Source: an uncultured Clostridia bacterium (GTDB taxonomy: Bacteria > Bacillota > Clostridia > Christensenellales > UBA3700). From it: 38,566 bases of DNA. Location of the stretch: the NCBI GenBank assembly GCA_946623205.1, contig CAMOQV010000002.1, forward strand, positions 1 to 38,566. Direction: 5' to 3'. Below are positions 3,979-35,728 of the stretch, piece by piece (the stretch's first letter is position 1; each line of letters starts with the position of its first letter). The notes under the pieces were generated by a model. The model saw only the letters and a list, made by a program, of their open reading frames with translations, had not been told where the DNA came from and searched no databases. A program made the translations under genes and the position numbers.

Positions 3979-4469
3979 TGAATATAGAACTTGTTGAATA
4001 TAACAAAAATTATGCAAAAGCAGCGCTTGCTATATGGAATGAAATCGTAGAAGCAGGCGATGCTTTTCCTCAAGATAAGGTAATGGAACTTGATGAGTCC
4101 ATTACTTTTTTTAATTCTCAAACTGCAACAATATTAGCAATAGATAAAGAGACCAATATAGTTTTGGGCCTATATATTTTGCATCCAAACAACGTAGGGC
4201 GTTGTTCTCACATATGTAATGCTTCATATGCAGTTACTAAGCGCGCGCGTGGCCTTAAAATTGGGCGTATGCTTGTTAAAGATTGTCTAAATAGGGCAAA
4301 GGCTTATGGCTTTAAAATATTGCAATTTAATGCCGTTGTGGCAAGCAATCAAGTTGCACTAAATTTATATAAAGATTTAGGTTTTATACAACTTGGTGTT
4401 ATCCCAAATGGGTTTAGAAATAAAAATGGGGATTATGAAGCCATAATCCCACATTATATCGAATTATAA
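3978..4469 (+). CDS. GNAT-family N-acetyltransferase
   Basis: RARGLKIGRMLV...AYGFKILQFNAVVASNQVALNLYKDLGF matches the acetyl-CoA binding motif A region. I take the start at the ATG overlapping the upstream stop (TAATG at 3976-3980) rather than the 3915 extension. Confidence 0.85.
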   Translation: MNIELVEYNKNYAKAALAIWNEIVEAGDAFPQDKVMELDESITFFNSQTATILAIDKETNIVLGLYILHPNNVGRCSHICNASYAVTKRARGLKIGRMLVKDCLNRAKAYGFKILQFNAVVASNQVALNLYKDLGFIQLGVIPNGFRNKNGDYEAIIPHYIEL

Positions 4470-4475
4470 TAAATT

Positions 4476-6175: not shown

Positions 6176-7834
6176 TTAAACGTATGGTAGTGGTTCTTCT
6201 ACCTTTTCACCGATAGCATCTGTAGCGCTAGCGATAACTTTTCCTGTATAGCATGTGAATATTTCGTTAACTTTTGCTGGATTTAAAATACCTTTCTTAA
6301 CCTCAAGTCTATATGTGCAAATAGATACGATTGGAACAATGATAATTGTAACTATCATAGCAATAGCACCAGCTACAACTGCATTTGCAAGATTTAGAAC
6401 TTCTCCAGATGAGAATGTTACATTTAAGAAATTCCATCCAGACAATTTGTAGATTAAAGAGAAGATCATAATTGCTAAGCCAACAACAAAGCTTGACCAA
6501 ACTGCAGACTTTGTAACCTTCTTCCAATATAGACCGAACATAAATGGAGCTAAGAACGCGCCAGCTAAAGCACCCCAAGAAATACCCATTAATGATGCGA
6601 TTTCACTGAAGTTGAATACCTTTTGGACGATAGCGATTGTAGCAGAAATAATAATGAATACAGCAATAAATATTCTCATTATAAATACTTGCTTTTTATC
6701 ATCCATTTTGTCTTCTTTAACTATGTTTCCTTTGATTAAATCAAGAGTTAAAGTTGATGAAGAAGTCAATACAAGTGAAGATAATGTAGACATTGAAGCA
6801 GATAATACAAGGATAACAACAAGTGCCATCAAGAAGTCTGATGAGATAGCTTTTTCTAGCATTGATGGAACGATTGAGTCAAAATCTTTTGTTCCTGGTT
6901 CTGCAAATAATCTACCGAATCCACCTAAGAAGTAACAACCGCCGGCAACGATAATAGCAAAGATTGTTGAAATGATTGTACCTTTTTTGATATCTTGCTC
7001 GTTTTTGATTGCATAGAATTTACCAACCATTTGAGGAAGCCCCCATGTACCTAATGATGTTAGGATAACAACTGCGATTAAGAAGATTGGCATTGGGCCT
7101 GCAAATGAAGCATATTGCCATCCAGCATTTTCGCTTTCAGCAAGGGCAGCCATTGCTCCAGAGAATCCGCCTTGTGTATTTAGAACTGCTGCAATAACAG
7201 CTAGGATACCAATAATCATAATGATACCTTGAACGAAGTCGTTAACAGCAGTAGCCATATATCCACCAACTGTTACATAGATGGCTGTTAATAATGCCAT
7301 TATGCAAACAATAATAATATATGCTGTATTTTCATTTTGGAATCCAAATGCTACTGTGAATAATCTTGAAAGACCATTGAATAGAGAAGCAGTATATGGA
7401 ATTAAGAAAATAAATACGATAATTGCGGCTGCAAGTTTTAAAGCTTTTGAATCATAACGTTTGCCAAAATAATCTGGCATTGTTTTTGAATCTAACTTTT
7501 GAGTCATAATTCTTGTTCTTCTACCTAAGATAGACCAAGCAAGTAGTGAACCGATAAATGCATTACCAAGTCCAATCCAAGTTGAAGCTACACCAAATAG
7601 ATAACCGAACTGACCAGCATAACCAATAAAGATAACTGCGCTGAAATAAGAAGTACCATAAGCAAATGCAGTTAACCATGGACCAACACTTCTCCCGCCA
7701 AGAACGAATCCATTTACATTTGCGGCCTTCTTTCTAAAATAAAGACCAATGGCAACCATAATGCCAAAGAATACTACCATCATAATGATGTTCGTAACGA
7801 TACGAGATGTAGTAGCTGCTGCAAGTATGTACAT
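6176..7834 (-). CDS. Sodium:solute symporter family transporter, substrate unknown (possibly tyrosine, see T-box)
   Basis: VLGGRSVGPWLTAFAYGTSYFSAVIFIGYAG is an SSF signature, with many TM segments. Start set at ATG 7834 (MYILAAA), which follows AGGAGG; the listed TTG at 7852 lies inside the RBS. Confidence 0.8.
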   Translation of the reverse strand: MYILAAATTSRIVTNIIMMVVFFGIMVAIGLYFRKKAANVNGFVLGGRSVGPWLTAFAYGTSYFSAVIFIGYAGQFGYLFGVASTWIGLGNAFIGSLLAWSILGRRTRIMTQKLDSKTMPDYFGKRYDSKALKLAAAIIVFIFLIPYTASLFNGLSRLFTVAFGFQNENTAYIIIVCIMALLTAIYVTVGGYMATAVNDFVQGIIMIIGILAVIAAVLNTQGGFSGAMAALAESENAGWQYASFAGPMPIFLIAVVILTSLGTWGLPQMVGKFYAIKNEQDIKKGTIISTIFAIIVAGGCYFLGGFGRLFAEPGTKDFDSIVPSMLEKAISSDFLMALVVILVLSASMSTLSSLVLTSSSTLTLDLIKGNIVKEDKMDDKKQVFIMRIFIAVFIIISATIAIVQKVFNFSEIASLMGISWGALAGAFLAPFMFGLYWKKVTKSAVWSSFVVGLAIMIFSLIYKLSGWNFLNVTFSSGEVLNLANAVVAGAIAMIVTIIIVPIVSICTYRLEVKKGILNPAKVNEIFTCYTGKVIASATDAIGEKVEEPLPYV

Positions 7835-7856
7835 AATAACCCTCCTAAGCAAGAGA

Positions 7857-8100
7857 CAATAAAAAAGCCTCTATGCTATATACTTACATAGAGGACGAAT
7901 AAATCCGTGGTACCACCTCAATTCACGCTAAAGCGCCTCAAACATTTATACAGATGACTCTGTCGTAGCCTACACATCTTTCGACTTCGGTACGCTGCTC
8001 CAAGAATGTATTCATTATATTAAAACTGATGTTTTACACCAACCAACATCTCTCTTGAAGTTATTAATATAACTACTTGTTTCTCTTCGTTGCTTTATCA
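7857..8100 (-). promoter_or_regulatory. T-box riboswitch leader with intrinsic terminator; candidate specifier UAC (Tyr)
   Basis: Minus strand carries AATTGAGGTGGTACCACGG (7923-7905), the conserved T-box sequence. A CCTCTATG...CATAGAGG + T-run terminator follows (7894-7857). Stem I elements: AGTA...GAA-TAC-A specifier-loop pattern (codon at 8010-8008), an AGAGA bulge and a GGTGTAAA distal loop. Confidence 0.85.
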
Positions 8101-10169: not shown

Positions 10170-10212
10170 GTTTTTACTATTAAAATAAAATTAAAGTACT
10201 TTGGAGGGTATT

Positions 10213-12009
10213 ATGGCAGAAAAGAAGGAAAATAAGCAAAAGAGTACTTTCGTACAATTCCTTTTGTTTATTGTTATGAGTTTAGCCGCATTCGCTGTTC
10301 AATTTGCGATTGTACAATTCGGACCAGCTGGTCTTAAGCTTTGTGGAGTAGATGATACTTTAAAAATGGATTTCTGGATTTTTAAAGGATACACACTAGC
10401 TGCATTTATATCATTCTTAGTTGCAAATACTTTGGCAAAAATTATCTCTTACATTTTAAATAGAAAGAAGACATTTAATGCCGTTAATAATTTGGTATTT
10501 TCAATGACAGTATATGTAATTATGTGCGTAACTTTAATTATTGTTGAAACTCTAATTGGAGAACCATTAGCTAATGCATATGCAAATTTATTTGAATCAA
10601 ATCCAGCAATTGCAGAATGGGCACCAACAATGTCAATGATTACATATTCAATTGCTGACTTCCTAATTGTATTCTTGATGGAGAAGTTTGTAATTATGAA
10701 CGATAATCTATTCAAGAAAAAGAATAAGGCTAATGCTGAAGATGAAGCTGAAGCAGAAGAAGTTGCTGACGAAGCTGAAGCAGAAAAGGCTGAAGAAGTA
10801 AAAGAAGAAGCTATCGTAGACGAAGTTAAAGACGAAGAGCCAGTTGCTGCTCCAGTAGAAGAAGTAAAAGAAGAAGAAAAGGTTGAAGAACCTGCTGAGG
10901 AAAAAGTCGAAGAAGAAAAGGTTGAAGAACCTGTTCAAGAAGAAGCTAAAGCTGAAGAACCTGTTCAAGAAGAAGCTAAAGCTGAAGAACCTGCTCAAGA
11001 AGAAGTTGTAGTTGAAGAAGCTAAAGCTGAAGAACCAGCTGCTATTCCTGTAGTAGAAGAAAAAGTTGAAGAACCTGTTAAAGAAGAGGCTCCAGCAAAG
11101 AAGGCTCCTGCTAAGAAGAGCGCTAAGAAAGCTAAAGAAGAAACAAAAGCAGAAGAACCAGCAAAAGAAGAAGTAAAGGCAGAAGAACCAGCTAAGGAAG
11201 AAGCAAAAGCAGAAGAGCCAAAGAAAGCTCCTGCTAAGAAAACAACAAAGAAAGCTAATGCTGGTAAGGTAGAATTTGACTTAAGAGTTGATGGTTACCA
11301 TTTCGAAGTTTCTGCTATGAACGGACAATTAATGTTCGAAAGCCAAGGCTTTGCATCATTAGAGACAGCTAAGACAGGATTTGAAACATTCAAGGCTGCA
11401 CTTGAAGACGAATCAACTCCAGCAACTGTTTATGAAGATAAGAGAGGCTTATGGAGATTCGTTATCAACAAGAGATATGTTGGTGAAGGATATAAGACTC
11501 GTGCTCAAGCTGAAGCTGCTATCGATTCAGTAAAGAGAGACGCTTTATTTGGTAAGGTTGAAGACTTCGTAGAAGATCCAGAAGAAAAGAAAGCATTCAA
11601 CGATGCTAAGAAGAAGTTAAACAAAGGTGCTGGTGTAGATTGGGATACAGCTTTAAAGGCTCCAGCTAAGACATTCGGTAAATTTGAAATTAACGGACAC
11701 GAAGGTAGAGGATATTTCTTCACACTTTACGCAAACAATGGTCAAATCTTATATTGCAGCCGTTACTATGCATCACAAGATTCTTGTGAAGATGCAATCA
11801 CAACATTCAAGAAAGCTTGCTATTTAGATAACTTCTTTATCGATAAAGACAAATTCGGTAACTGGAGATTCGTGCTAAAGGGAACAGGTGCAGGTATTGT
11901 TTATGTTGGCGAAAGCTATAGCACAAAAGATGCTGCAATTTCAAGTTCTGAATCAGTTAAGAAGTTCGCAATGACAGCTAAGATTGTTGTTGTTGAAGAC
12001 GAAGACTAA
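10213..12009 (+). CDS. Fusion protein: GtrA-like membrane domain, acidic E/K/A/P repeat linker, two tandem pairs of YegP (DUF1508)-like repeats
   Basis: N-terminal 4-TM region with GtrA-like layout. About 190 aa of EEPAKEEAKAEEP-type repeats follow. The C-terminus has four YegP-like units (YHFEVSAMNGQLMFESQGF.., WRFVINKRYVGEGY.., YFFTLYANNGQILYCSRYY.., WRFVLKGTGAGIVYVGESY..). Start set at ATG 10213 after GGAGGG; the listed TTG 10201 overlaps the RBS. Confidence 0.7.
   Translation: MAEKKENKQKSTFVQFLLFIVMSLAAFAVQFAIVQFGPAGLKLCGVDDTLKMDFWIFKGYTLAAFISFLVANTLAKIISYILNRKKTFNAVNNLVFSMTVYVIMCVTLIIVETLIGEPLANAYANLFESNPAIAEWAPTMSMITYSIADFLIVFLMEKFVIMNDNLFKKKNKANAEDEAEAEEVADEAEAEKAEEVKEEAIVDEVKDEEPVAAPVEEVKEEEKVEEPAEEKVEEEKVEEPVQEEAKAEEPVQEEAKAEEPAQEEVVVEEAKAEEPAAIPVVEEKVEEPVKEEAPAKKAPAKKSAKKAKEETKAEEPAKEEVKAEEPAKEEAKAEEPKKAPAKKTTKKANAGKVEFDLRVDGYHFEVSAMNGQLMFESQGFASLETAKTGFETFKAALEDESTPATVYEDKRGLWRFVINKRYVGEGYKTRAQAEAAIDSVKRDALFGKVEDFVEDPEEKKAFNDAKKKLNKGAGVDWDTALKAPAKTFGKFEINGHEGRGYFFTLYANNGQILYCSRYYASQDSCEDAITTFKKACYLDNFFIDKDKFGNWRFVLKGTGAGIVYVGESYSTKDAAISSSESVKKFAMTAKIVVVEDED
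10924..10983 (+). repeat. Perfect 30-nt in-frame tandem duplication inside the acidic linker (a third degenerate copy follows)
   Basis: gaagaacctgttcaagaagaagctaaagct occurs twice back to back, then gaagaacctgctcaagaagaag. Confidence 0.9.
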
Positions 12010-13980: not shown

Positions 13981-14006
13981 TATCATATCATTCATCCTCG
14001 TTTTTT

Positions 14007-14432
14007 TTATTTCTTTAAAACTTCCAAATATGCTTTAATTTCTCGCTTAGCTCCTTCTAAATCATGCTCTTTATAATTTCCGCATTGTTTTCTTTCAGTT
14101 CCAGGAACATAATCTAACTCTAAACATTTTTCAAAGCATTCAATTGTTACTTGTTTAGCTTCCTCTTCTTTGATGCCATATAGAAGAAGGTAACATCCAG
14201 TTCTACATCCCATTGGTCCAAAATATACAACATTATCTTTAATTCTGCTGTTTCTTATTACTACAGCGAACAAATGCTCAATAGAGTGTATAGCTGCATA
14301 TGAAATGTAATCCCCACCATTTGGGTGTTTAAATCTCAAATCGTATGTATATACGTTATGTGCTTCGCCCAAGCAATAAAAGCCTGGTGTTAATTTATCA
14401 TGATCTAATTCAAAAGACTTAATGTTATCCAT
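14007..14432 (-). CDS. luxS: S-ribosylhomocysteine lyase
   Basis: HSIEHLFA metal-binding motif, GPMGCRTG motif and the N-terminal SFELDHDK pattern are typical of LuxS. Start set at ATG 14432 (MDNIKSF), which follows GAGGT; the 31-aa upstream extension is unlikely. Confidence 0.9.
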   Translation of the reverse strand: MDNIKSFELDHDKLTPGFYCLGEAHNVYTYDLRFKHPNGGDYISYAAIHSIEHLFAVVIRNSRIKDNVVYFGPMGCRTGCYLLLYGIKEEEAKQVTIECFEKCLELDYVPGTERKQCGNYKEHDLEGAKREIKAYLEVLKK

Positions 14433-14560
14433 ATTTACCTCGCGAAATAATGATAGCATATTTCCCTTTAAATAATATACACAAAATGATAATAATTTTG
14501 CACAATTTGTGTTAATATTTTTCATAACTAATTAAATATAAAACATTTAAAGTAGCACGA

Positions 14561-14589
14561 TTTGGCAAAATATATGGATTTTTTGGCAA
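14561..14589 (+). promoter_or_regulatory. Direct repeat TTTGGCAA x2 with 21-nt start-to-start spacing; candidate LytTR-regulator binding site
   Basis: TTTGGCAA at 14561-14568 and 14582-14589, ending 6 nt upstream of the -35 hexamer. Confidence 0.4.
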
Positions 14590-14595
14590 GAATCA

Positions 14596-14624
14596 TTGAC
14601 ATTTTATATTGTTAAAAATATAAT
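14596..14624 (+). promoter_or_regulatory. Consensus sigma-A promoter for the two-component/helicase operon
   Basis: TTGACA (14596-14601), a 17-nt spacer, then TATAAT (14619-14624). Confidence 0.7.
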
Positions 14625-14648
14625 AAATCGTGTTAAGAGGTGCAAAAT

Positions 14649-15359
14649 ATGTTTAAGATTGCAATATGCGATGATGAAAAAGAAGAATTAAATAAATCTT
14701 TGCAATGTGTTACAACACATTTTGAGTCAGCTACAGATAAGGCTACAGTTGATGTATTTACAGACCCAAAACAATTAATCGACAAAGTTAAAGAAAACGT
14801 TATTTATGATTTATACATTTTGGACGTTTTGATGGGAGATGTTAATGGTATTGATGTTGCCAAGATAATTAAGTCTTTTTCAAAGAATGCTAAAATTATA
14901 TTTACAACTACATCAAGAGAATTTGCTGTTGATGCGTTTGCTGTTCAAGCAGACAATTATCTAGTTAAGCCATACAAGCAAGATGATATGGATAATGCTT
15001 TAAATAGAGTTATTAAAACAATTCCACAAAATTTATTTATTATTAAAAATACTAGTGATGGAATTAAGAAGATATATTTGAACACAATTTGTTATTCAGA
15101 ATCAAGTGGGCATTATCAATATGTTCATTTGGATAACAAGGAAGTCTTAAAGATTCGTCTTAAGACAAATGAGCTTTGGGATGAATTAAGCAAATATAAG
15201 CAATTCATTAGACCTCATAGCGGATATATCGTAAATATGGACCAAGTTAAAACTATGACATCTTTTGGTATGAATGTTTGTGATGTTGATGTCCCAATTT
15301 CTAAAAATACGTACAACAAAGTAAAGCGTATTTTTATGGAGTACACATTTAATAAATAA
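14649..15359 (+). CDS. LytR/AlgR-family response regulator (receiver + LytTR DNA-binding domain)
   Basis: Receiver signature IAICDDE...LDVLMGDVNGIDV. C-terminal LytTR signature FIRPHSGYIVNMDQV. ATG 14649 lies 8 nt after AAGAGG. Confidence 0.9.
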   Translation: MFKIAICDDEKEELNKSLQCVTTHFESATDKATVDVFTDPKQLIDKVKENVIYDLYILDVLMGDVNGIDVAKIIKSFSKNAKIIFTTTSREFAVDAFAVQADNYLVKPYKQDDMDNALNRVIKTIPQNLFIIKNTSDGIKKIYLNTICYSESSGHYQYVHLDNKEVLKIRLKTNELWDELSKYKQFIRPHSGYIVNMDQVKTMTSFGMNVCDVDVPISKNTYNKVKRIFMEYTFNK

Positions 15360-16666
15360 TGCTAACAGTTTCAAGAATTATATTGTATATAGTTACAATC
15401 GCGGGAGCAGGCGGACTAATTTGGTGCGTTACTGAGGCGCGTCGTTCTATAACATACGTAGTTCCAATAGGTCTTGCAGTATTTGGTATTAGCTTTGTTG
15501 CAGCACTTTTCGCTGCTATGTATATTCACGATGAAAATATATATTATTCAGCAATTGCTACAATTTCACTAGTTACACTAGTGCCAGTTATGCTTTATAT
15601 TTCAAAAGACCCATGGTATAAGTTGCTTTTCGAATTGGCGACACAGGCAAATGCATTTTTGATTACGATGTATGTCGGAAAGAGCTTTGGCGTACTGTTT
15701 GGAAATAATGAGTGGGCTGACGTTGGCTTTAGAGCACTTTCCTTTATAATTATTATATTGATGTATAAAACATTCTTAAAAGATAGATTTAGATCATTTG
15801 CTAACCAATATAATTCGGTATATGGTTGGTTGTTCTTGTTTATAGTAACTATATCATTTACGGTATTGTTCTTATCGATTCAATATTTCCCAGTTACATT
15901 AGCACAAAGAACAGATGTTAAATTATTTACGACAGTTATGAATTTTGCAATTGTTGCTTATACGATTACATACATTGCTCTAGTTGCATTGTTTAATAGA
16001 ATATTACTTAGTCAAAAAGCTAAAGCAGAGGTTCAAGCTGCAGAATTAAAGATGGATTATTGGAAAGCACAAATCGCAACACAAGAAGTTCTTATTAACA
16101 ATACAAGAAAAATAAAGCATGACATGCGTCATCATGATGCATTGCTTGTTGATTGTATAACAAATAAAGAATACGATAAAGCTTTAAAATATCTTCAAGA
16201 GCATGGCGCAATAATTGATCAAATTACAATAAAACAATATTGTGAGAATTATACAGTTAACTGTCTATTGTCTACATATATTAGAAAGGCAGAAAATGCA
16301 GGTATTCAAGTAGAATGTCAAACTCAAGTCCCAAAAGAGTTGCAAATTGACGATTTGAGATTGGCTTCAATATTTGCGAACTTAGTAGAAAATGCTATTG
16401 AAGCATGCGATAGAATTAAAGACGAATCTGTTCATAAATTTATAAATATTAGTTCTAAATATGATAATGGTGCATTAAAGATATTGGTAGAAAATTCATC
16501 AAATGATGACGTTAAATTTGATGGCCCATTCCCAATATCTCAAAAAGCTAATCCAAGTGGCATTGGCACAAAGACAATCTATGAATTTGCAAATAGATAT
16601 AATGGTCTTTGTGAATACACTTTAGAAAATGGCGTATTTAGTGCTAGATTGCTTTTGGTGGTTTAA
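15359..16666 (+). CDS. AgrC-like (HPK10-type) membrane sensor histidine kinase with GHKL ATPase domain
   Basis: About 6 N-terminal TM helices, H-box KIKHDMRHH, N-box FANLVENAIEA and G-box GIGTKTIYEF. The start overlaps the regulator stop (TAATG). Confidence 0.85.
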   Translation: MLTVSRIILYIVTIAGAGGLIWCVTEARRSITYVVPIGLAVFGISFVAALFAAMYIHDENIYYSAIATISLVTLVPVMLYISKDPWYKLLFELATQANAFLITMYVGKSFGVLFGNNEWADVGFRALSFIIIILMYKTFLKDRFRSFANQYNSVYGWLFLFIVTISFTVLFLSIQYFPVTLAQRTDVKLFTTVMNFAIVAYTITYIALVALFNRILLSQKAKAEVQAAELKMDYWKAQIATQEVLINNTRKIKHDMRHHDALLVDCITNKEYDKALKYLQEHGAIIDQITIKQYCENYTVNCLLSTYIRKAENAGIQVECQTQVPKELQIDDLRLASIFANLVENAIEACDRIKDESVHKFINISSKYDNGALKILVENSSNDDVKFDGPFPISQKANPSGIGTKTIYEFANRYNGLCEYTLENGVFSARLLLVV

Positions 16667-16668
16667 TA

Positions 16669-17556
16669 GTGAATTCAACAAATACATTGAGAATATGTAA
16701 AAGCTATAAAGACAGGCTTGAAAAGTTATCTTCTTTATTAGAATATCCAGAATTTAATATTGATTATAATTTTTCAAAAAGGTTTTTAAAAGAGATATCA
16801 AAACTTAAGCCGATAGTTGAATTATATGATTTATATCTAATTTCGGATCAAGAAATAGAAAAGCAAGATATATTATCTAGCATCAACAAACTTATAATTA
16901 AAGATAAGGTTGATGAATACGATGGAATTAAGATTGAGATTTCATCTAAAGATTTAGAGGCAAAAGCTTTTTTGCAAAAATCCTATCAAACCTATTTTTC
17001 ATCATGCCAATATAAAGTAATTGAAGATGATGGCTTGATAATTCTAGGAACATCAATATATTCAATCTATAAGAATGAAACGGGAATTCATATATATAAA
17101 GATGGTTATGAATCTGAAGTGAAGGTTTTGGTATTGCCATATATTGAAAGTAAGGAAACCGAAATTCCGTTAAGCGATTTAAGAATCGATTATTACCACT
17201 CATCTGGCGCCGGCGGACAAAATGTGAATAAAGTTGAGACGGCAATTAGAATTACGCATATTGACACCAATATCGTCGTTACATGCCAAGATGAAAGATC
17301 TCAACTAAAGAATAAGCAAAGAGCGTTAGAGTTAATAAATAAAAAGGTTAATCAATATTATCTAGATAAAGTTCAAAAAGAGATTGATTCTATAAGAAAG
17401 GAAGCGAAGAATAACAAAACTATCATAAGAACTATAGATGTAACAAAAAATGAACTATTTGATACGCGCACGCAAAAGAAATATAATATTAGTGATGTGT
17501 TCAAGAGCGAGTTGGGCGATATCGATAGCGAGATTTTAGTTAATGAAGTTAAATAG
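16669..17556 (+). CDS. Peptide chain release factor 1-like paralog: GGQ domain intact, PxT codon-recognition loop absent
   Basis: SSGAGGQNVNKVETAIRITHIDTNIVVTCQDERSQLKNKQ matches the RF GGQ domain (GGQ at 17212-17220). The N-terminus resembles the RF1 helical domain. Where RF1 has RVQRVPxTExxGRIHTS, this protein has only IYKDGYESEVKV. GTG start 2 nt after the kinase stop; 295 aa against about 355 for RF1. Confidence 0.75.
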   Translation: MNSTNTLRICKSYKDRLEKLSSLLEYPEFNIDYNFSKRFLKEISKLKPIVELYDLYLISDQEIEKQDILSSINKLIIKDKVDEYDGIKIEISSKDLEAKAFLQKSYQTYFSSCQYKVIEDDGLIILGTSIYSIYKNETGIHIYKDGYESEVKVLVLPYIESKETEIPLSDLRIDYYHSSGAGGQNVNKVETAIRITHIDTNIVVTCQDERSQLKNKQRALELINKKVNQYYLDKVQKEIDSIRKEAKNNKTIIRTIDVTKNELFDTRTQKKYNISDVFKSELGDIDSEILVNEVK

Positions 17557-19945
17557 TGTAGTAAATATTAAGATAGATCCATCAATTACTGTTCTTTCAG
17601 ATTCTACGCGAATTTTTAAAAGCGAACTATTTATAAAACAAACAAAAAATCTAAAAGAAATTGACAGATTCTTAACTAAGATATCTGATGGTATATTAAT
17701 TGCGCTTAAGGATAATGTCATTGATTTAATGGATGCATACATTATCTCTTTAATGGATGGGCAAAATTCGCTTTTATTCAAGTTCGGAAAGAACGTCAAA
17801 AATGATGCACTAAATCAAGCGGATATTGTCTTTTATAAATTCATAACAAAAGATGAAATTAAATATGAAGATAAAAGATTGGTGCGTGCAATTCAAAAAG
17901 ATGAAATAAGCATCGATATTAAAAAGATCCAAGATTTAACAAACCAAGATATTCAAAAGTTATATATTCTATCTAATGAAGATAAGGTGAATTTGCCTCT
18001 TTTAAATAAGGAGCAAGAAAAGCTAGTTACACTTGAAAACGACAATATTATTATTCAAGGTGTTGCAGGTTCAGGAAAGACAAATATTTGTATAGATAGA
18101 ATCGTGTATTCTGCATCTAGAAGATATAGAGGCAAGATTTTATATAGTACATATTCACATGCACTTTTGCAAGATACGAAAAACAAGGTGTCATTATTTA
18201 ATAGCAATATAAAAGATTTTGCAAAGAAGATGCAAGATAAAAAAGTCGTCTTTATAGGGAAGAATAAAAAAGCCGCAATTGAAAATAGATTAGGAATTTG
18301 GTTAGATGTTCAAGATGAAGATAGAATAATTGCTGCATTATTTGAGATGTCTAATTATCTAGAAACTAAAGTAGACTATATGCTTATCGAAGATTTATAT
18401 AATGCTAAAAGGGGAGCAAATATAATCTTTGAGGACGAAAAGAGCTTTATAAATTCATATATAAATAACATTAAAAACTACAATCTAAAAAGCAGCATAG
18501 ATAAAATAAAGTATTTGTCGTTTGAAGTAATCTATAAAGAAATATATGGACTTATTTTAGGCTATGCAAATATGCCAACTCAAGAAGAATATGTAGAATT
18601 GAGGAAAGACAGCTTTTCATCGCAAGAAGCTTCTACTATTTATTTAATAGCTAAAGATTATTTAAAATATTTAGAATCTTCAAATAAGATAGACAATAAT
18701 ATCGCATCAAGATATATACTTTCAAGATTAAATAGTATAGATAAATATTCGCTTTGTGTATTAGATGAGGTTCAGGACTTTACTCAAATAAATCTAAACA
18801 TGTTTAGAGAAATTTCATATAAGATGTTCTGCGTAGGTGATGCACTTCAGATGATTAACCCTGCATATTTTAGCTTCGCTTATTTGAAAAGATTAATGTT
18901 TGATGAGAATTATGCTAATGTTGTAGAACTAAGAAATAACTACAGAAATTCAAAAAAGATAGAAAAGATAATAGATAATTTAAGCGAATTAAATATAGAG
19001 CAATTTGGTACGCACAGCTTTGTCCTTAGAGGAAAGAGTGTAGATGATGAGTTGCTTGCAAAAACGGTTTATATAAATAGTTCTAACTTTATACAATACC
19101 TAAAGAATAAGGCTTATTCAGATGTAACACTTGTTGTCGATACAAAGGAAAGGAAGCAAGCTTTAAGGGCTATGTTTCCAAGACAAGAAATATTGACTAT
19201 ATCTGAAATAAAAGGGTTAGAGAGAAACTTTGTTATCTTGTTGGATGTTTTATCTGACAATTCTCAAAAATGGGATTATTTACAACGTACAATAATTAAA
19301 AAGAAAAAGGCAGAAGAAAATTCTGTATATAGATACTATTTTAATTTGTTCTATGTTGGATTAACTCGTGCAAAGCAAAATTTGTTTGTAGTAGAAGGAA
19401 AAAATATAAATCTATTTAAGAATTTCTTCGATAATAATTTTGATGCACTTTCAGATAAGGCGGCATTTGATTTATTGGAGAGCGTTGCAAGTAAAGTAGA
19501 TTTAGACAGACAAGAAATAATTGAAAGAATAGAAGAATTTATTAGACATGAGCAATATGACAACGCAAGAGTGCTTTTGGAGAGATTAGATAAAGATGAT
19601 GCTCATCTTCAAAGCGTAAAGATAGATATTTATGAAAAGTATATAAGACGAAATCAAAATAGAGAAGCAGGAATTGAGTTCTGGAAGATGGGTCTTTTAG
19701 ACGATGCAAAAGAACAATTTAGAATTTCACACGATGATAAATTAATAACACTTTTAGAGGCGTGCGAGTCAAATGGATCAAATTTAGAATATGACATTGT
19801 TGAATTTTACAATGAAGTAAAAGATAACGATATCGCCAAGAATTTAATTTTGGATACTCTAAAGGATGATTTAAATAAAATAAAGTCAACTCAACAAACT
19901 ATTATAAATAGCATTCACAAAAGGAGAACGAAGTATGGAAAATAA
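17543..19945 (+). CDS. SF1 (UvrD/Rep/HelD-like) helicase with unassigned ~170-aa N-terminal and ~180-aa C-terminal regions
   Basis: Walker A GVAGSGKT (18059-18082), motif II VLDEVQDF (18758-18781), NYRNS, GLERNFVILLDV and motif VI YVGLTRAKQNLFVV. The start overlaps the RF-like stop by 14 nt. Confidence 0.8.
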   Translation: MKLNSVVNIKIDPSITVLSDSTRIFKSELFIKQTKNLKEIDRFLTKISDGILIALKDNVIDLMDAYIISLMDGQNSLLFKFGKNVKNDALNQADIVFYKFITKDEIKYEDKRLVRAIQKDEISIDIKKIQDLTNQDIQKLYILSNEDKVNLPLLNKEQEKLVTLENDNIIIQGVAGSGKTNICIDRIVYSASRRYRGKILYSTYSHALLQDTKNKVSLFNSNIKDFAKKMQDKKVVFIGKNKKAAIENRLGIWLDVQDEDRIIAALFEMSNYLETKVDYMLIEDLYNAKRGANIIFEDEKSFINSYINNIKNYNLKSSIDKIKYLSFEVIYKEIYGLILGYANMPTQEEYVELRKDSFSSQEASTIYLIAKDYLKYLESSNKIDNNIASRYILSRLNSIDKYSLCVLDEVQDFTQINLNMFREISYKMFCVGDALQMINPAYFSFAYLKRLMFDENYANVVELRNNYRNSKKIEKIIDNLSELNIEQFGTHSFVLRGKSVDDELLAKTVYINSSNFIQYLKNKAYSDVTLVVDTKERKQALRAMFPRQEILTISEIKGLERNFVILLDVLSDNSQKWDYLQRTIIKKKKAEENSVYRYYFNLFYVGLTRAKQNLFVVEGKNINLFKNFFDNNFDALSDKAAFDLLESVASKVDLDRQEIIERIEEFIRHEQYDNARVLLERLDKDDAHLQSVKIDIYEKYIRRNQNREAGIEFWKMGLLDDAKEQFRISHDDKLITLLEACESNGSNLEYDIVEFYNEVKDNDIAKNLILDTLKDDLNKIKSTQQTIINSIHKRRTKYGK

Positions 19946-20648
19946 CGAAGTACAATCTTTAATTAGTGCATTTAAAGGTTATAGGGACATATTAACACCT
20001 ATACAAACCTCGTTACATGAGCTAGCAGACACTTATTCTACAATGGAGGAAGATTTGCAAAAGCTATCTTTGGCTTTTAATGGCGATGCGAAAACAAAAC
20101 TTAATCAGATTTATGATAATCTTTCTAATCAATCTAAAAAGTCTGCAGATTTGGCATCAAGTATTGATGCGTTCTTAAAGAATAGTAATAAATACATTTC
20201 TGATGTATCTAAGATTTCATCAAATCTCGAAGCATTTGAAGAAAAGATTTCAACTTTAAATGAGATTGAAAAGAAAGCTCAAGAACAAATGAGAAGGTTA
20301 GATGAACTGATCGAAGAAAAGAAGATAAACTACAATGTTAAAGATCTAGAAAGAGCTTTAGATTCATACAATAATAACGTTCAAAAAGTAAGTGATTTTA
20401 TCAACAAAGATGTTGCACAGTCTTTGAATGAAACTTCGAAAAAGGTTGATGCTATTAAAAAAGATAGTGAAGAGTTGGCACGACAATTAAAAGACGAAAA
20501 CAAAACTGTTGATGAATTAATTATGACATATAAGACAACCAATAAACTTCTTCAAAATACTATAGAGAAAGAAGGCGTAAACGAAGAATATATATTTGCA
20601 ATATTAGATAAATGGGCAAACGAAAGAGGCGTTAAGACTAAAAGATAA
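19935..20648 (+). CDS. Coiled-coil protein of unknown function (237 aa)
   Basis: Heptad-rich, E/K/L/S-rich sequence with no TM segment. AGGAG RBS. The start overlaps the helicase stop by 11 nt. Confidence 0.6.
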   Translation: MENNEVQSLISAFKGYRDILTPIQTSLHELADTYSTMEEDLQKLSLAFNGDAKTKLNQIYDNLSNQSKKSADLASSIDAFLKNSNKYISDVSKISSNLEAFEEKISTLNEIEKKAQEQMRRLDELIEEKKINYNVKDLERALDSYNNNVQKVSDFINKDVAQSLNETSKKVDAIKKDSEELARQLKDENKTVDELIMTYKTTNKLLQNTIEKEGVNEEYIFAILDKWANERGVKTKR

Positions 20649-22510
20649 TGCTACAAGGAATAGATAAGGAAATCTTTAAAGCTATAAAGGCAGATGATAT
20701 AAAAGCATTTAGAGCATGTATGCAAGATGCTCAAGCTTTGACGCTATCTTATGGAAGATTTCCAATTCTTTCGTTGTGTTATTTGTATAATTCTAGACAT
20801 ATTATTAAAGAATTTGAAGATAAGCTTTTGCAAATAAGATCATATACAATATATCCAGAAAATAGCGAGATGTATATACTTTTTAAATCTAAAGCTAAAA
20901 GATGTATACGTTTATATGCTGGGAAAGATTGTATAGTGCATCCGCTTGAAATGCTTTGTATATTAAATAAGAAAACTCGTGTAGAAGCTGTATATCCAAA
21001 AGCGATAAAGACTAATTCAACAATTGAGAATATAAAGATGATTGAATCTATTAAGTATTCAAAAGAGGTTGAAGCTACGGAAACAAAGATTGTCTTACCA
21101 AAGCAACCAATAGATAAGAACTTTATAAAAACATCTTTGGCTGCTATGGCGATATTGCTCGTTGTAGCAATTGTATTTTCCGTTCTTGGTGGATTTGTTT
21201 ATTCGCTTGGAAATGGTAGCGAAGATAGACCATATAAGGTTGTGGGCGAATCTCAACTTATAAAGGCAATAGAGTCTAACTCATATGTCATTTTAGATAG
21301 AGATATTGAAGTTGATAATTTGGATTTTGATAGTTATAGCGGAATTATTGATGGCAATGGTCATACAATAACTATAAACAATCAAACAGGAACTATATTT
21401 AAAGAAATATCTGGAACTATCAAAAATGTTAATTTTAGTATTATTTTAAATTATGAAACAAAAACATCTGCATCAGTGTTAGTAACAAATCTAACTGGCA
21501 CATTAGATGGCGTCAATGTTGATATATTAGGAAATTTGAAATATACAGGCAATGCCGCATCTAGCGTTACTTTAAATCTTTCTGTTTATTCAAATGAAAA
21601 CAATGGAACAATTAAAAATTGTGTATTAAATTCAAATTTAAACATTATAGGTAACGGTGTTAATGATGTAGTTTTTGGCGGGTTTAGCGCGCAAAATAAA
21701 AATGCGATTTTAAATGTTGAAGCTTTGGGTAATATTGAAATGGAAGAAGTAAATGGGGCTGTTGTTTCTTATGTAAATACAGGAACTATAGAAAATGCTC
21801 AAAATAAAACCAATATTAGTCAAACGACAAATGCATTCAATTGCGATTTAATGGTTGCGTCTATGGCAATCAAAAATTTTGGAAATATTAAAAATGCCAT
21901 TAATGAAGGTAAGATTTCTCTAAAAGCAACGAATGAAAAAGGGGCCTATGTATTTATGGGCGGAATTGCTTGCGATAACTATTTAACCATTGAGCATTCA
22001 AAGAATTTGGGTGAAATAATTTGCGATGGAGAATATTTCCATGCAAAGATTGGTGGTATTGCGTCAACTGGTGAATATTATTTTGTAGATAATTATCCAA
22101 CATTTGATTCATGTGCATCCTTAGGAAAGGTTAGCGTTATAACTATAAAGACTATATCAAGGTCTTATGTGGGTGGAATAGTTGGTGGCTTTAGAGAATA
22201 TGATTATATATATAATCGTCTGCCAATTGTCATAAAAGATTGCTATTCAGTATATGAAGTTGATTTGCAAGGCACATATGAGGCCAAATTATTAGGTGGG
22301 CTTGCTGGGCTTTGGCCATTTATGAACAATGCTGGCACATATTTGAGTAATAATGCTTATTTGGTTAAAGAATCAGTCCCTCATGCTTTGTATATTTGCT
22401 ATGAGTCGTCATTCTTTGAGTATGTATACGATGCGTACGATAGTGTCGAGGGTATGTTTAGCGGGTATAATACAGAGGATGAAATAAAAGCTTTGGAGAT
22501 TTATTGGTAA
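20648..22510 (+). CDS. Single-pass membrane protein: ~160-aa cytoplasmic helical-repeat domain, TM helix, extracellular GLUG/beta-helix-like domain
   Basis: TM helix LAAMAILLVVAIVFSVLGGFVYSL (about 21137-21208). The ectodomain opens with PYKVVGESQLIKAI...YSGIIDGNGHTITI and carries GGFSAQ, GGIACD, GGIAST, GGIVGG and GGLAGL motifs, as in the 487-3978 lipoprotein. TAATG overlap with the upstream gene. Confidence 0.65.
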   Translation: MLQGIDKEIFKAIKADDIKAFRACMQDAQALTLSYGRFPILSLCYLYNSRHIIKEFEDKLLQIRSYTIYPENSEMYILFKSKAKRCIRLYAGKDCIVHPLEMLCILNKKTRVEAVYPKAIKTNSTIENIKMIESIKYSKEVEATETKIVLPKQPIDKNFIKTSLAAMAILLVVAIVFSVLGGFVYSLGNGSEDRPYKVVGESQLIKAIESNSYVILDRDIEVDNLDFDSYSGIIDGNGHTITINNQTGTIFKEISGTIKNVNFSIILNYETKTSASVLVTNLTGTLDGVNVDILGNLKYTGNAASSVTLNLSVYSNENNGTIKNCVLNSNLNIIGNGVNDVVFGGFSAQNKNAILNVEALGNIEMEEVNGAVVSYVNTGTIENAQNKTNISQTTNAFNCDLMVASMAIKNFGNIKNAINEGKISLKATNEKGAYVFMGGIACDNYLTIEHSKNLGEIICDGEYFHAKIGGIASTGEYYFVDNYPTFDSCASLGKVSVITIKTISRSYVGGIVGGFREYDYIYNRLPIVIKDCYSVYEVDLQGTYEAKLLGGLAGLWPFMNNAGTYLSNNAYLVKESVPHALYICYESSFFEYVYDAYDSVEGMFSGYNTEDEIKALEIYW

Positions 22511-22734
22511 TGTTTAGAGAAGACAAACATAAAGTAGCTGTATATATGTCTTTATTAATTATGGCAATCGTGGATGCTATAGCATTGCTTGTTGCTTTAG
22601 TGCTTGGAATTATGCTAGGTGTTGGCGCGCTTTTACAATCTCAAGGCATAATAATAGCCGCAATTTTTGTTGCAGCTATAAATGTTTTAGAAATTATATT
22701 TATTCTAATTTGTTTGTTAAAGACTAAAGATTAA
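22510..22734 (+). CDS. Small two-TM membrane protein (74 aa)
   Basis: Two long hydrophobic stretches. ATG 22510 overlaps the upstream TAA (TAATG). The 3' end overlaps the convergent TetR gene by 4 nt. Confidence 0.5.
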   Translation: MFREDKHKVAVYMSLLIMAIVDAIALLVALVLGIMLGVGALLQSQGIIIAAIFVAAINVLEIIFILICLLKTKD

Positions 22735-23333
22735 CTATTTAATATATTTGTTATGCTTGCACAAACTAATTCGGACATTTGCCCATAATCTATATAATCA
22801 TGCTTGTCATATAAGTATTCGTGTGCATAAGATTGAACAATATCCATAATTAAATGAACTTTTTCTGTAAGATTTTTATTTTCAAATCCAAGTTCGATTA
22901 ATTTTTGAGCTCCAAGTTCTGTAATTGTTTTTTCTAATTCCATAAATTCTTCATTGATATCATTATGCGTGTCTGCAAGAGAATGTAAGATATTATGTAA
23001 ATTTGCATTTGTATGATGTAGTTTTGTTGTTAGTGCAACTAAAGACTTAGAAAGCTCATCAACATCTATAGGTGCTGATATAGAATCTAAATATTCGATA
23101 ATAGGAGCTTTTATATCATTAATATATATTTTTAATACATAAAACAATATATCTCTTTTATCTTTGAAATATCCGTAAACAATACCAGTAGAAACGCCTG
23201 CAACCTTTGCGATGTCTGCAGTGTTAGTGTTGTAATAGCCGACATCTGAAAATACTTTGTAGGCAGCCTTTATAATAGCTTCTTTTTTTTGCTTTGATCT
23301 CTCTTGTCGAGGTTCTCTAATTTCATTTCCCAT
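22731..23333 (-). CDS. TetR/AcrR-family transcriptional regulator
   Basis: N-terminal HTH KKEAIIKAAYKVFSDVGYYNTNTADIAKVAGVSTGIVYGYFKDKRDI. Confidence 0.9.
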   Translation of the reverse strand: MGNEIREPRQERSKQKKEAIIKAAYKVFSDVGYYNTNTADIAKVAGVSTGIVYGYFKDKRDILFYVLKIYINDIKAPIIEYLDSISAPIDVDELSKSLVALTTKLHHTNANLHNILHSLADTHNDINEEFMELEKTITELGAQKLIELGFENKNLTEKVHLIMDIVQSYAHEYLYDKHDYIDYGQMSELVCASITNILNS

Positions 23334-30559: not shown

Positions 30560-30716
30560 ATAACCTCTCAAGTATTTAGATTAGTTATATCATAAATAAA
30601 AAATAATAATTTTACAAGATTAAATTAAATGCACATATATTCTAGTAAAATTAGAGTTATAATATTATTAATACTAGATGCTGCACTTAAAGATTTTTTA
30701 AGTGCGCTTTTTTATA

Positions 30717-32192
30717 ATGATTAAAATGTGTATTAGTAAAAAGAGATTTTGGGTTATTGTTATTGCATATTTACTTTTGGTGGTAGTTATTTTATCTACT
30801 GTCATTTTTGTGCTTAATTCGTCGTATACCTATTCACCAGTTCATGCAGATAGAATGATAAAAGAAGGGGAGATGTGTGAATTAACAATAGAATATAATG
30901 GTGCAAAAGGTAAGCCAGATAAAGAAGTTATCTATGTTGAGGCGTTCTCAACTTATAATTTTCCAGAAATAGAAAGAGATGGATTTAAATTCTTTTGTTG
31001 GTTTTGCAACTTTGTTGCATGTAAAGATTCTGTAGAGATAAGATCTAAAAAAATTAGAGCAATAGCTCAATTTGAAAAAGACTATTCTTTAGTTAATGCA
31101 CCATGCGCAATTTATAATTCAAATACTGCTTTTGATGAATTTGAAGTGGGAGATTATCCTTCTATAAATAAAAAAGTTAAAGATGTTTATTTAGATGGAG
31201 GTTATAAGGCCATTATTTATTCAAAAGAAAATTTTAAAGGAAAACAAACAGAAGTTTATTATCAAGGCGTTTATTCAGGCAAAATCGGTTCTATGAAAGT
31301 AGAAAAATTATCTACAAATAGAGTAAAGATTAATGAATTGAATGACGAAACAAAATATGATCTTTTAAAATCGTATGCGCCAAGATTTTGGTGGGATGAA
31401 GATGAACAGTATTATGCATCTTCTGTTGAATTTGCTTTGCAAAATTTAACTCGTACTTTATCTCCAGATGGATATATGGGTGTGATTTCAGATTTGGATT
31501 CTCCAAACTATAAATCAGATTATTTGTATGGTGATAAGCAAAACATGAAAACATATGGTTTTATTGTAGAAAAAGAATATAAGTATTTAGATCTTTGCTA
31601 TTATCTTTATTTCCCATACAATAAAGCAAAAGAAATGTTCGGTATAGAATTTGGTAACCATATTGGCGATTGGGAACATTTAAATGTTAGATTGCTTTTA
31701 GATAAAGACGGGGAAGATTGGTATATAACGCCGATATTTGCGCAATATAGTATCCATAGTGAAAGAATATATATGCCTTGGGAGAATGTGCCAAAAATTG
31801 ATAATACACATCCTGTTGGCTATATTGCAAATGGAAGCCATGGCATTTGGCCATATGCAGGAAAGAATGTATACAAAGATTTGTTTATAATAAAACTTTC
31901 AGATGTATGTTCTGAAGGCGAGGCTTGGGATACTTGGGAAGGAAACAGTTTAGAAACATATTCATATGACGCTCTAACTTGGTCTGGAAAGGGGATAGGG
32001 AATAGCGAGTGGAATACTTGTTTTGACCATGATTTTTATAACGAAAACTCAAATGCAATAATTAGATGGGGTAATTATGGGTTTGATTATCCAGTCCAAT
32101 TATATCCAAGACTGCAAAATGCGCCAGAAGGGCCAACTTGTAAAAAGAGCGTATTTAATTATTTCACAATGGATACAAAATTCGTTTATTAA
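30717..32192 (+). CDS. Membrane-anchored protein with a beta/gamma-crystallin-like segment and a Vps62/DUF946-like domain
   Basis: N-terminal TM anchor. GYKAIIYSKENFKGKQTEVYYQGVYSGKIGSMKV resembles a crystallin-type Greek key. YAPRFWWDEDEQYYASSVEF and GDWEHLNVRL resemble Vps62-family motifs, recalled from memory. The listed GTG 30702 lies inside a terminator-like hairpin, so ATG 30717 or 30726 is preferred. Confidence 0.45.
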   Translation: MIKMCISKKRFWVIVIAYLLLVVVILSTVIFVLNSSYTYSPVHADRMIKEGEMCELTIEYNGAKGKPDKEVIYVEAFSTYNFPEIERDGFKFFCWFCNFVACKDSVEIRSKKIRAIAQFEKDYSLVNAPCAIYNSNTAFDEFEVGDYPSINKKVKDVYLDGGYKAIIYSKENFKGKQTEVYYQGVYSGKIGSMKVEKLSTNRVKINELNDETKYDLLKSYAPRFWWDEDEQYYASSVEFALQNLTRTLSPDGYMGVISDLDSPNYKSDYLYGDKQNMKTYGFIVEKEYKYLDLCYYLYFPYNKAKEMFGIEFGNHIGDWEHLNVRLLLDKDGEDWYITPIFAQYSIHSERIYMPWENVPKIDNTHPVGYIANGSHGIWPYAGKNVYKDLFIIKLSDVCSEGEAWDTWEGNSLETYSYDALTWSGKGIGNSEWNTCFDHDFYNENSNAIIRWGNYGFDYPVQLYPRLQNAPEGPTCKKSVFNYFTMDTKFVY

Positions 32193-33869: not shown

Positions 33870-33933
33870 GTTGCATGTTTATCATTTGAATGAAAGTAAT
33901 TCGATAAGCTAATTAATGGCATTTCGCGCTAAA

Positions 33934-35709: not shown

Positions 35710-35728
35710 TTTGATGCTAGCATGTGAA

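Follow-up and report, generated by a model that had tools for sequence, protein, structure and literature searches.

Why would a gene descended from that of release factor 1 (RF1) be tied, in one operon, to genes for a helicase, a coiled-coil protein and two membrane proteins? The question is raised by a 38,566-nucleotide stretch of DNA from an uncultured Clostridia bacterium (GenBank assembly GCA_946623205.1, contig CAMOQV010000002.1, positions 1 to 38,566 of the forward strand; hereafter the window, meaning this stretch at its full length), in which seven plus-strand genes lie between positions 14640 and 22734. A preliminary description, made from the sequence alone, had read them in order as a LytTR regulator, an AgrC-like kinase, an RF1 paralogue of which only the GGQ part was recognisable, a UvrD-like helicase, a coiled-coil protein, a transmembrane (TM) protein with a GLUG/beta-helix ectodomain and a two-TM peptide. 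The analysis described here indicates that the RF-like protein derives from RF1 and is predicted to have lost the ability to read stop codons, that the evolutionary unit consists of the last five genes, and that these five probably form one membrane-associated machine. What this machine does is a matter for more tentative argument, which we take up step by step.

The release-factor-like protein

The closest sequence relative of the RF-like protein is canonical RF1 (PrfA), with which it has the QDERSQLKNK block in common, yet its scores fall well below what every recognised family demands: 122.2 bits with TIGR00019 (cut-off 423) and 127.5 bits with NF001859 (cut-off 400) for RF1, 112 bits with the NCBIfam model of RF2 (cut-off 370), 68.6 bits with the PrfH model TIGR03072 (cut-off 166.65) and 49.2 bits with the ArfB model NF006718 (cut-off 100). 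The likeness to RF1 is distributed unevenly over the protein. Domain 3 is 45–57% identical to RF1 and keeps the GGQ motif in its RF1 setting (SSGAGGQNVNK), and in alignments with canonical RF1 the segment SSGAGGQNVNKVETAIRITH...CQDERSQLKNK is nearly unchanged in the window protein, as it is in each cluster-linked homologue. Domain 2 is 15–31% identical, and the PCRF domain is matched only weakly and below threshold in Pfam (1.8e-3). The PxT tripeptide and the GRxHTS strand of the decoding loop are deleted in the window protein and in all cluster-linked homologues; some 40 further residues are gone from domains 1 and 2 of the window protein, and part of domain 1 is deleted throughout the window's clade. 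The N-terminal helical domain is kept, with its LLEYPE...D...K residues, and remnants of RF1 domains 1, 2 and 4 are present. Because the loop is deleted, the GGQ motif retained and every family cut-off missed, the protein is best regarded as a descendant of RF1 that is predicted to be unable to read stop codons and whose GGQ hydrolase domain appears to be under strong constraint, so that its earlier designation as a GGQ-only RF1 paralogue was correct. Its homologues form a discrete family of about 40 clusters, apart from canonical RF1, and comparison among clades suggests a stepwise reduction from the full-length factor.

The related loci are labelled here L001 and upward, with W for the window. 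In L019 and L021–L025 the RF genes of the cluster encode proteins of 318–366 aa with a full PCRF domain, and these were considered as canonical prfA and rejected, the PxT/GRxHTS loop being missing there too. Five of them, at L019 1280–2380, L021 4815–5819, L022 4881–5864, L024 7041–7997 and L025 7015–8001, have a near-complete PCRF domain from which the decoding loop alone is missing.

A 2019 survey of release-factor evolution lists RF1, RF2, ArfB and PrfH as the only bacterial GGQ families, with no helicase-linked family among them, reports ArfB to be absent from Firmicutes, and gives a retained GGQ motif with a lost decoding loop as the signature of the codon-independent rescue factors ArfB and PrfH (PMC6514570). 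From the same combination in the window protein we infer that it may act on stalled ribosomes. With ArfB (YaeJ), ICT1 and mtRF-R it shares the retained GGQ hydrolase and the loss of stop-codon recognition, and by analogy its expected activity would be the hydrolysis of peptidyl-tRNA on stalled ribosomes or on split large subunits. ArfB, however, is a stand-alone GGQ domain of ~140 aa with a basic C-terminal tail, whereas the window protein has 295 aa, carries the RF1 remnants described above and is strictly operon-linked to four other genes. The likeness to PrfH–RtcB2 goes further in one respect, since there too a class-I RF paralogue with the GGQ motif kept and decoding altered sits in an operon with a nucleic-acid enzyme; the proposed role of PrfH is peptide release from abnormal ribosomes (PMC6514570). 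The differences are nevertheless considerable. Besides missing the PrfH cut-off, the window protein keeps an N-terminal helical domain that PrfH, which has no N-terminal GTPase-interacting domain, lacks; its partner is a superfamily 1 (SF1) helicase, accompanied by a coiled-coil protein and two membrane proteins, and not an RtcB ligase, which Pfam and neighbourhood searches did not find in the window or in any related locus; and the module is inherited vertically within one lineage of Clostridia, unlike PrfH, which is spread sporadically by horizontal gene transfer.

The five-gene unit and its genomic sites

Related loci were reached by four independent routes, through homologues of the RF-like protein, of the coiled-coil protein (gene 5), of the beta-helix membrane protein (gene 6) and of the helicase. 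By the first route, the helicase gene lay directly downstream in all six look-ups, and the genes for the coiled-coil protein, a protein of ~600 aa and one of ~75 aa followed in order in five of the six, the sixth contig (L009/L010) ending within the helicase. A coiled-coil profile run against 185,579 species-representative genomes returned 10 loci with the same gene order, all in uncultured Clostridia/Christensenellales metagenome-assembled genomes (MAGs), mostly from the rumen. Distant members of the gene-6 family (~29% identical) and distant helicases (~45% identical) both sit in the same five-gene block. The order RF-like protein, helicase, coiled-coil protein, beta-helix protein, small peptide is thus the same in all of the more than 20 non-redundant loci; over 16 loci, 74 of 76 junctions span no more than 20 nt, and 48 overlap or abut. 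With the same order recurring in every related locus examined, the arrangement is far beyond chance. The preliminary description had named a lack of co-conservation among the five downstream genes as one finding that would refute it; this was looked for, and strict co-conservation was found. All carriers are uncultured MAGs, and on the sequences searched the five-gene core is conserved only in Clostridia of the gut and rumen.

The coiled-coil protein, an assignment that holds from the preliminary description, is the most constrained member of the module. It measures 237–242 aa in all loci and has invariant blocks that include IEEKKINYN and ILDKWA; GRFPILSLCYLY is also among the invariant residues of the module. 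In Pfam, PADLOC and the PDB it raises mere coiled-coil noise (designed or viral coiled coils in the sequence-level structure search), and with the window protein alone as query the family amounts to 70 matches among 1.84 billion representatives, of which ~20 are full length. The gene-6 family comprises about 60 clusters, beyond which lie GLUG proteins only, so that both families occur essentially only within the module. These data leave almost no probability to the explanation that functionally unrelated genes have been packed together by genome compaction. The genome is indeed compact and rich in AT, with many short intergenic distances, but the five genes keep their order in every locus, at protein identities down to ~25–45% and at three or more chromosomal sites, and two of the families are hardly seen elsewhere; the synteny already contradicts compaction and in practice excludes chance juxtaposition.

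The description of a seven-gene unit that includes the AgrC/LytTR pair can be upheld only in part. The domain assignments stand, but an operon that begins with the pair is confined to the window's clade (W, L001–L006, L009–L015), and the conserved unit is five genes plus two: the pair is an add-on in one clade, and the five genes are the unit of evolution. In the window's clade the module always lies between luxS and TetR-feo, the location given in the preliminary description. In one clade that has no two-component system (TCS) (L008, L016–L018, L020) the five genes lie between a divergent transglutaminase-like gene and rpsF-ssb-rpsR; in another (L022, L024, L025) they lie between gpsA and genes for HAD hydrolases, near relA; L019, L021 and L023 have yet other flanks. 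There are thus at least three clades, each with the block at its own housekeeping site, and the genes near the module are housekeeping or metabolic ones. In every TCS-bearing locus where the gene upstream of the regulator could be seen and named (W, L001–L004, L011, L013–L015), it is luxS, in divergent orientation; L009/L010, with a partial upstream ORF, are not among these. In the window the luxS ORF is listed at 14007–14525 (−) with 172 aa; its orthologues have about 142 aa, and the gene probably starts at an internal Met that would give this length.

Within these fixed sites the module changes quickly. In L001, L002 and L004 the flanking FeoB and LuxS are 88–95% and 88–90% identical to those of the window; the response regulator is at 49–70%, the histidine kinase at 48–66%, the RF-like protein at 50–59%, the coiled-coil protein at 72–83%, gene 6 at 38–52% and the small peptide at 34–58%, while the helicase is at 70–77% in L001 and L002, the L004 figure being absent because of a scaffold gap. 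The same gap (100 Ns, at L004 ~4457–4556 and at the equivalent position of L005) disposes of a helicase pseudogene in L004/L005 that a split call, with residues ~334–470 missing, had seemed to indicate. All module proteins rank the loci similarly by identity, which points to co-divergence, and the module is inherited vertically and evolves fast at its outward-facing parts.

Such rapid change raises the question of whether the module is an anti-phage or abortive-infection system, a possibility mentioned in the preliminary description. On this account the beta-helix protein and the two-TM peptide would sense phage adsorption or DNA injection, the coiled-coil protein would relay the signal, the helicase would attack or sense phage nucleic acid, the RF-like protein would hydrolyse peptidyl-tRNA on all ribosomes and so stop translation, and the TCS would add quorum or alarm control. 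We consider this rather unlikely, although it is the chief alternative. The divergence relative to the flanks, strongest in the ectodomain and in the kinase sensor, is what would be expected of it, as is a multigene operon that joins a helicase with weak GajB-like matches to membrane proteins; one congener may, moreover, be without the module at the TetR-feo site. However, the module has never been found beside known defence genes or mobile elements, has a fixed housekeeping site in each clade and co-diverges with its host, encodes no nuclease or other usual effector, and shows a uniform architecture without the shuffling typical of defence systems. The fast divergence leaves the conflict reading some ground, but the genomic context lends it little: the stable sites, the co-divergence with the host and the lack of phage, plasmid or viral copies speak against it; the stable housekeeping sites and the lack of viral and plasmid copies indicate a lineage-specific cellular function.

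Comparison with known defence systems leads to a similar outcome. For the seven proteins, PADLOC (2023 database) gave weak partial matches to GajB, at most 34 bits and confined to the motif regions of the helicase, along with coiled-coil noise to JetC, LmuB and ZorA, none of it meaningful. Gabija consists of GajA with GajB, and although the window has a UvrD-like SF1 helicase with these partial matches, no match to the OLD-family ATPase-TOPRIM nuclease GajA, or to any other PADLOC component, was found among the seven. A parallel that counts in favour of the defence reading is offered by CoCoNuT types II and III, a predicted precedent in which the SF1 helicase CnuH is combined with an SmpB-like domain in a defence context, and which resembles the window in having an SF1 helicase, a derivative of an A-site termination or rescue factor and coiled-coil elements (PMC11090510). 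CoCoNuTs, however, are built on the McrB GTPase and McrC nuclease, with UPF1-like (SF1B) helicases and an SmpB-like OB fold, none of which is in the window; McrB GTPase and McrC nuclease domains were not found in the seven proteins, and the likeness lies in the logic alone. PHROGs returned generic RF-1 and helicase families only, and a known defence system was rejected on this and on the weak, partial PADLOC matches. No tblastn match to the module was found in phages, plasmids gave remote SF1 matches only, and IMG/VR held no module, the coiled-coil probe finding nothing there and the helicase probe two Walker-A fragments only; a phage or plasmid origin was rejected accordingly. Nor is the gene set described in the open-access literature searched, and public records label its proteins 'AAA family ATPase', 'UvrD-helicase domain-containing' or hypothetical. 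The earlier statement that the combination matches no named pathway or defence system thus stands.

The congener just mentioned (L029; FeoB 93% and TetR 80% identical) came from a search of metagenomes with the flanking TetR. At L029 10600–12047, TetR is followed by a strong intrinsic terminator, an ORF for a 120-aa membrane protein, a tRNA gene and rsmI. The TetR-feo genes are there without adjacent luxS or module, at a rearrangement breakpoint from which nothing firm follows on presence or absence.

Operon structure, control signals and surroundings

The ORFs of the operon (Table 1) have the boundaries given in the preliminary description, and the promoter assigned there matches the consensus exactly.

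Table 1. Predicted features of the seven-gene operon and its control region, with positions in the window
Feature	Position	Strand	Evidence
Direct repeat TTGGCAA-N14-TTGGCAA	14562..14589	+	exact repeat, 21-bp period, abuts -35; putative LytTR regulator binding site
Sigma-70-type promoter TTGACA-17-TATAAT	14596..14624	+	consensus match 12/12
Response regulator, REC + LytTR DNA-binding domain	14640..15359	+	Response_reg 4e-16, LytTR 2e-9 (Pfam)
Sensor histidine kinase, AgrC/ComD type	15359..16666	+	HATPase_c_5 1.9e-15 (Pfam), six TM segments
RF1-derived paralogue, 295 aa	16669..17556	+	RF-1 domain E=5.5e-29 (Pfam), alignments to canonical RF1
SF1A UvrD/PcrA-like helicase, 800 aa	17543..19945	+	Pfam, motifs, AlphaFold, Foldseek
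Cytosolic coiled-coil/helical protein (gene 5), 237 aa	19935..20648	+	fixed length, invariant blocks across loci
Single-pass beta-helix membrane protein (gene 6), 620 aa	20648..22510	+	AlphaFold, Foldseek, remote GLUG homologues
Small two-TM hairpin protein (gene 7), 74 aa	22510..22734	+	two hydrophobic segments; alternative TTG start 22504

Every junction is an overlap or a gap of at most 2 nt. The regulator, whose likely start is the ATG at 14649 behind an AAGAGG Shine-Dalgarno sequence, shares TAATG with the kinase at its end; the RF-like gene opens with GTG after a 2-nt gap and overlaps the helicase gene by 14 nt, which in turn overlaps the coiled-coil gene by 11 nt; TAATG recurs at the junctions on either side of gene 6, and at its 3′ end the small ORF runs 4 nt into the convergent TetR gene. 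The five core genes are translationally coupled. In TCS-bearing loci the junction of kinase and RF-like gene lies between −1 and +3 nt. Terminator-like matches number 4, compared with 3.5 ± 2.0 in shuffled sequences, the three on the plus strand lying within coding sequence and having poor T-tracts, and promoter-like matches within the operon number 65, compared with 69; since neither exceeds the shuffles, there is no evidence for internal units, in agreement with the earlier failure to see a terminator. A promoter-like site at 17459–17487 that matches 11 of 12 positions may be a candidate internal promoter. Given the junctions and the recurrence of gene order in related loci, we take the seven genes to be what the preliminary description had proposed, one real, tightly packed operon.

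The TTGGCAA repeat ends 6 nt 5′ of the −35 element and is the sole exact occurrence of its kind in the 38.6-kb window. In L001 and L002 it is kept at an equal distance from the −35, in L013 with one mismatch, and the sequence of the spacer varies. LytTR sites are characterised by paired direct repeats (~9 bp, spacer ~12 bp) upstream of the −35, a pattern that this putative site, kept in four loci, fits. Among TCS-bearing loci whose upstream sequence was read, a TTGACA −35 and an AT-rich, TATAAT-like −10 stand at the same position 5′ of the regulator in W, L001, L002, L004, L009, L013, L014 and L015. Direct repeats beside the −35 are the usual architecture of LytTR operators, and by this analogy the regulator would bind the repeat, which implies autoregulation of the single transcript.

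The pair itself has the make-up of a LytTR-type two-component system, a REC–LytTR regulator with a cognate membrane kinase. The kinase has six hydrophobic segments, a GHKL (HATPase_c_5) domain and an H-box, KHDMRHH, at about residues 254–259; across loci its sensor half (26–61% identity) diverges faster than its kinase half (43–72%). The regulator is not an AgrA or LytR equivalog, scoring 34–58 bits with NCBIfam models whose cut-offs are 375–400 (34.5 bits with AgrA, cut-off 400). The likeness of the pair to Agr and ComDE, in which an HPK10 kinase is paired with a LytTR regulator, extends to the six-TM HATPase_c_5 kinase, the repeats of 21-bp period beside the −35 of its own promoter and the fast-diverging sensor domain. 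It differs from them in that no AgrB, AgrD or ComC-like gene and no ABC exporter was found among the ORFs and Pfam matches of 14000–23000 or in the neighbouring genes, in the regulator falling short of the AgrA equivalog, and in the cargo under its control, which is unprecedented. A further difference is a relative, L006/L007, that has a regulator without an adjacent upstream kinase gene. There the REC–LytTR regulator (L006 145–858, L007 59–772) and the RF-like gene are direct neighbours, no kinase gene separating the two, and upstream of the regulator the available contig (144 nt) looks non-coding; the module may here be headed by an orphan regulator.

In Firmicutes, bacteriocin and immunity loci are the classical targets of AgrC/ComD-type kinases paired with LytTR regulators, and small two-TM proteins are typical immunity proteins. 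This bears on the proposal that the module is a counter-conflict repair or immunity system analogous to PrfH–RtcB, which would rescue ribosomes poisoned by a competitor's bacteriocin or toxin, with the small TM and beta-helix proteins as immunity or receptor-shield parts and AgrC/LytTR as the usual regulator of a bacteriocin locus. We think it unlikely. Along with the kinase, the regulator and the two-TM protein, the fast evolution of the module would suit it, and it has a model in PrfH, a decoding-altered RF paralogue that shares an operon with a nucleic-acid enzyme and rescues ribotoxin-damaged ribosomes (PMC6514570). But neither within the loci nor in their neighbourhood is there an RNA ligase, a bacteriocin gene, an ABC exporter or a peptide precursor, a two-component system is altogether missing from most clades, and the RF-like protein does not belong to PrfH.

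Elsewhere in the window, several features deserve mention in their own right. A T-box leader at 7888–8099 (−) (Rfam RF00230, 120 bits) precedes the gene for a sodium:solute symporter at 6176–7852 (−), next to which is a second SSF symporter at 4476–6050 (−); the leader looks like a tRNA-sensing riboswitch that controls a transporter, not a synthetase. An unusual 602-aa protein is encoded at 10201–12009 (+), with an N-terminal multi-TM region, a low-complexity linker of ~250 residues rich in E, K, A, P and V, and repeated DUF1508 (YegP-like) domains. At 30702–32192 (+), adjoining a GH26 glycoside hydrolase, is a 496-aa protein with a match to Vps62-like proteins (PF06101, 1.2e-6), a family rarely seen in bacteria. 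Finally, a large serine recombinase (33934–35580, −; Resolvase, Recombinase and Zn_ribbon_recom) is flanked by ORFs at 33249–33869 and 35835–36701 that match no Pfam family; this region (33249–36701), at the 3′ end of the window and far from the operon, may mark the border of an integrated element.

A possible membrane-tethered release machine

Any functional account has to accommodate the helicase and the membrane proteins. The helicase matches UvrD-helicase, UvrD_C_2 and AAA_19 in Pfam; its motifs GSGKT176, DEVQD408, GDALQ432, YRNS467 and GLTRAK606 are conserved across the family (55 homologues), and with Walker A, Walker B, motifs III, IV and VI (VGLTRAK conserved) and the two-RecA fold it has all the marks of SF1A. 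In the AlphaFold model (pLDDT 83.8) the SF1 core is flanked by a beta-rich N-terminal domain (1–145) and a helical-repeat C-terminal domain (~620–800), and Foldseek places the core closest to UvrD, PcrA and Rep (E about 1e-12, TM 0.45–0.49); HelD, which associates with RNA polymerase (RNAP), is also among the best structural matches. All of this supports the UvrD-like assignment made earlier.

Genes 6 and 7 of the window match no Pfam family. The AlphaFold model of gene 6 (41 homologues, mean pLDDT 90.8) consists of a helical N-domain (1–137), a TM helix (157–187) and a right-handed parallel beta-helix (196–607). Foldseek gives the ectodomain weak matches to the GLUG region of IgA1 protease (best E 5e-3), an SRRP adhesin and pectate-lyase folds, and the N-domain weak matches to DARPins (ankyrin); the sequence-level structure search gave one weak match, 'IgA1 protease'. 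The GLUG motif (PF07581) is not in the window protein itself but is present in family member P0152, in the L025 orthologue and in remote homologues, so the beta-helix of the earlier description is borne out by the model, while a GLUG character is a possibility raised by these relatives. Across loci the N-domain is 31–63% identical and the ectodomain 24–48%, as would be expected if the N-domain contacts conserved partners. Gene 7 has hydrophobic segments at 16–34 and 52–70, in keeping with the two-TM peptide described before, and gene 6 is followed by an ORF of 73–92 aa, alike in topology and ending in a basic C-terminus, in 17 of the 18 loci that contain gene 6 (17 of the 19 examined; L009 ends before gene 6). 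A larger GLUG-motif protein of 1163 aa (PF07581, 1.9e-10) is encoded at 487–3978 (+) of the window, and GLUG beta-helix surface proteins seem to be common in the source organism.

These structures give some weight to the idea that the RF-like protein does not act on ribosomes at all, and that the module has a DNA-directed or envelope function, either as a membrane-tethered helicase that resolves DNA or transcription complexes or as an operon devoted mainly to making or regulating a beta-helix adhesin at the surface, in which the RF-like protein would moonlight as an adaptor or esterase. Structurally, the helicase is matched best by the DNA helicases UvrD, PcrA and Rep and by the RNAP-associated HelD, the ectodomain resembles the beta-helices of adhesins and IgA proteases, and the decoding scaffold of the RF-like protein is heavily eroded. 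What makes the idea improbable is that the GGQ motif and the domain-3 residues that contact the peptidyl transferase centre are nearly invariant, in a domain that is 45–57% identical to RF1; if the substrate were anything but ribosomal peptidyl-tRNA, this would be difficult to account for.

The reading that we prefer, albeit tentatively and at something short of even odds, is of a membrane-tethered module which, aided by the helicase, would release peptides from ribosomes independently of stop codons, and which would be gated by a signal in the window's lineage. Two catalytic outputs, stop-codon-independent hydrolysis of peptidyl-tRNA and ATP-driven translocation on nucleic acid, fit the facts as parts of a single machine. 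In such a machine the coiled-coil protein would bridge the cytosolic domain of gene 6 and the two-TM peptide to the helicase and the RF-like protein. Upon an envelope cue the helicase would engage the mRNA or nucleic acid of a translation complex, and the RF-like protein would enter the ribosomal A site or a split large subunit, with no stop codon needed, and hydrolyse the peptidyl-tRNA, so that stalled, damaged or unwanted translation complexes would be cleared or terminated, most plausibly at the membrane. In the window's lineage only, the AgrC-type kinase would sense an extracellular signal, probably a peptide, and phosphorylate the LytTR regulator, which would bind the TTGGCAA repeat and turn on, in a single transcript, its own genes together with the five-gene module. 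The outcome could be protective, through rescue or through repair of damage done by ribotoxins or bacteriocins, or else a shut-off that is deliberate.

It is important to stress that several observations weigh against this preferred reading. The scaffold of RF domains 2 and 4 is eroded, and domain 4 is wholly lost in the L008/L016/L018/L020 clade. SF1A helicases usually act on DNA, not mRNA. Ribosome rescue has no obvious need for a 430-residue extracellular beta-helix or for a two-component system of its own. Divergence of the module far outpaces that of its flanks (RF-like protein 50–59% and gene 6 38–52%, compared with 88–95% for FeoB), a pattern met more typically in conflict genes than in housekeeping quality control, and the presence or position of the module may vary within the genus.

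A bolder form of the same release hypothesis can be envisioned, which we hold with more doubt than belief: the RF-like protein would found a fifth bacterial family of class-I RF paralogues, one that works only within a membrane-tethered SF1-helicase machine and couples envelope-cued, stop-codon-independent release to helicase-driven disassembly of translation complexes, the cue being sensed by the beta-helix protein and, in the window's lineage, also gated by the AgrC/LytTR pair. This would amount to a bacterial surveillance of the eRF1–UPF1 type at the membrane, or to a new immune mechanism in which premature peptide release puts an end to translation. The resemblance of the module to eukaryotic eRF1–UPF1 surveillance, in which an SF1 helicase is likewise combined with a termination-factor derivative, is one of logic only.

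The component folds are all known, and it is the combination at the level of the system, together with the RF paralogue family, that appears to be undescribed. The recognised bacterial GGQ families RF1, RF2, ArfB and PrfH (with RtcB) act essentially alone or with one partner. A decoding-less RF1 descendant bound in one operon to a helicase, an adaptor and two membrane proteins would, if true, be a new way of targeting peptidyl-tRNA hydrolysis, linking the cell surface to the ribosome; should the module turn out to serve defence instead, its effector principle, premature peptide release, would be new. The matter bears on how stalled and damaged ribosomes are handled in Firmicutes, which are without ArfB. 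In the Christensenellales-like Clostridia that carry it, abundant in rumen and gut and uncultured, the module may represent a new, membrane-based bacterial means of acting on ribosomes.

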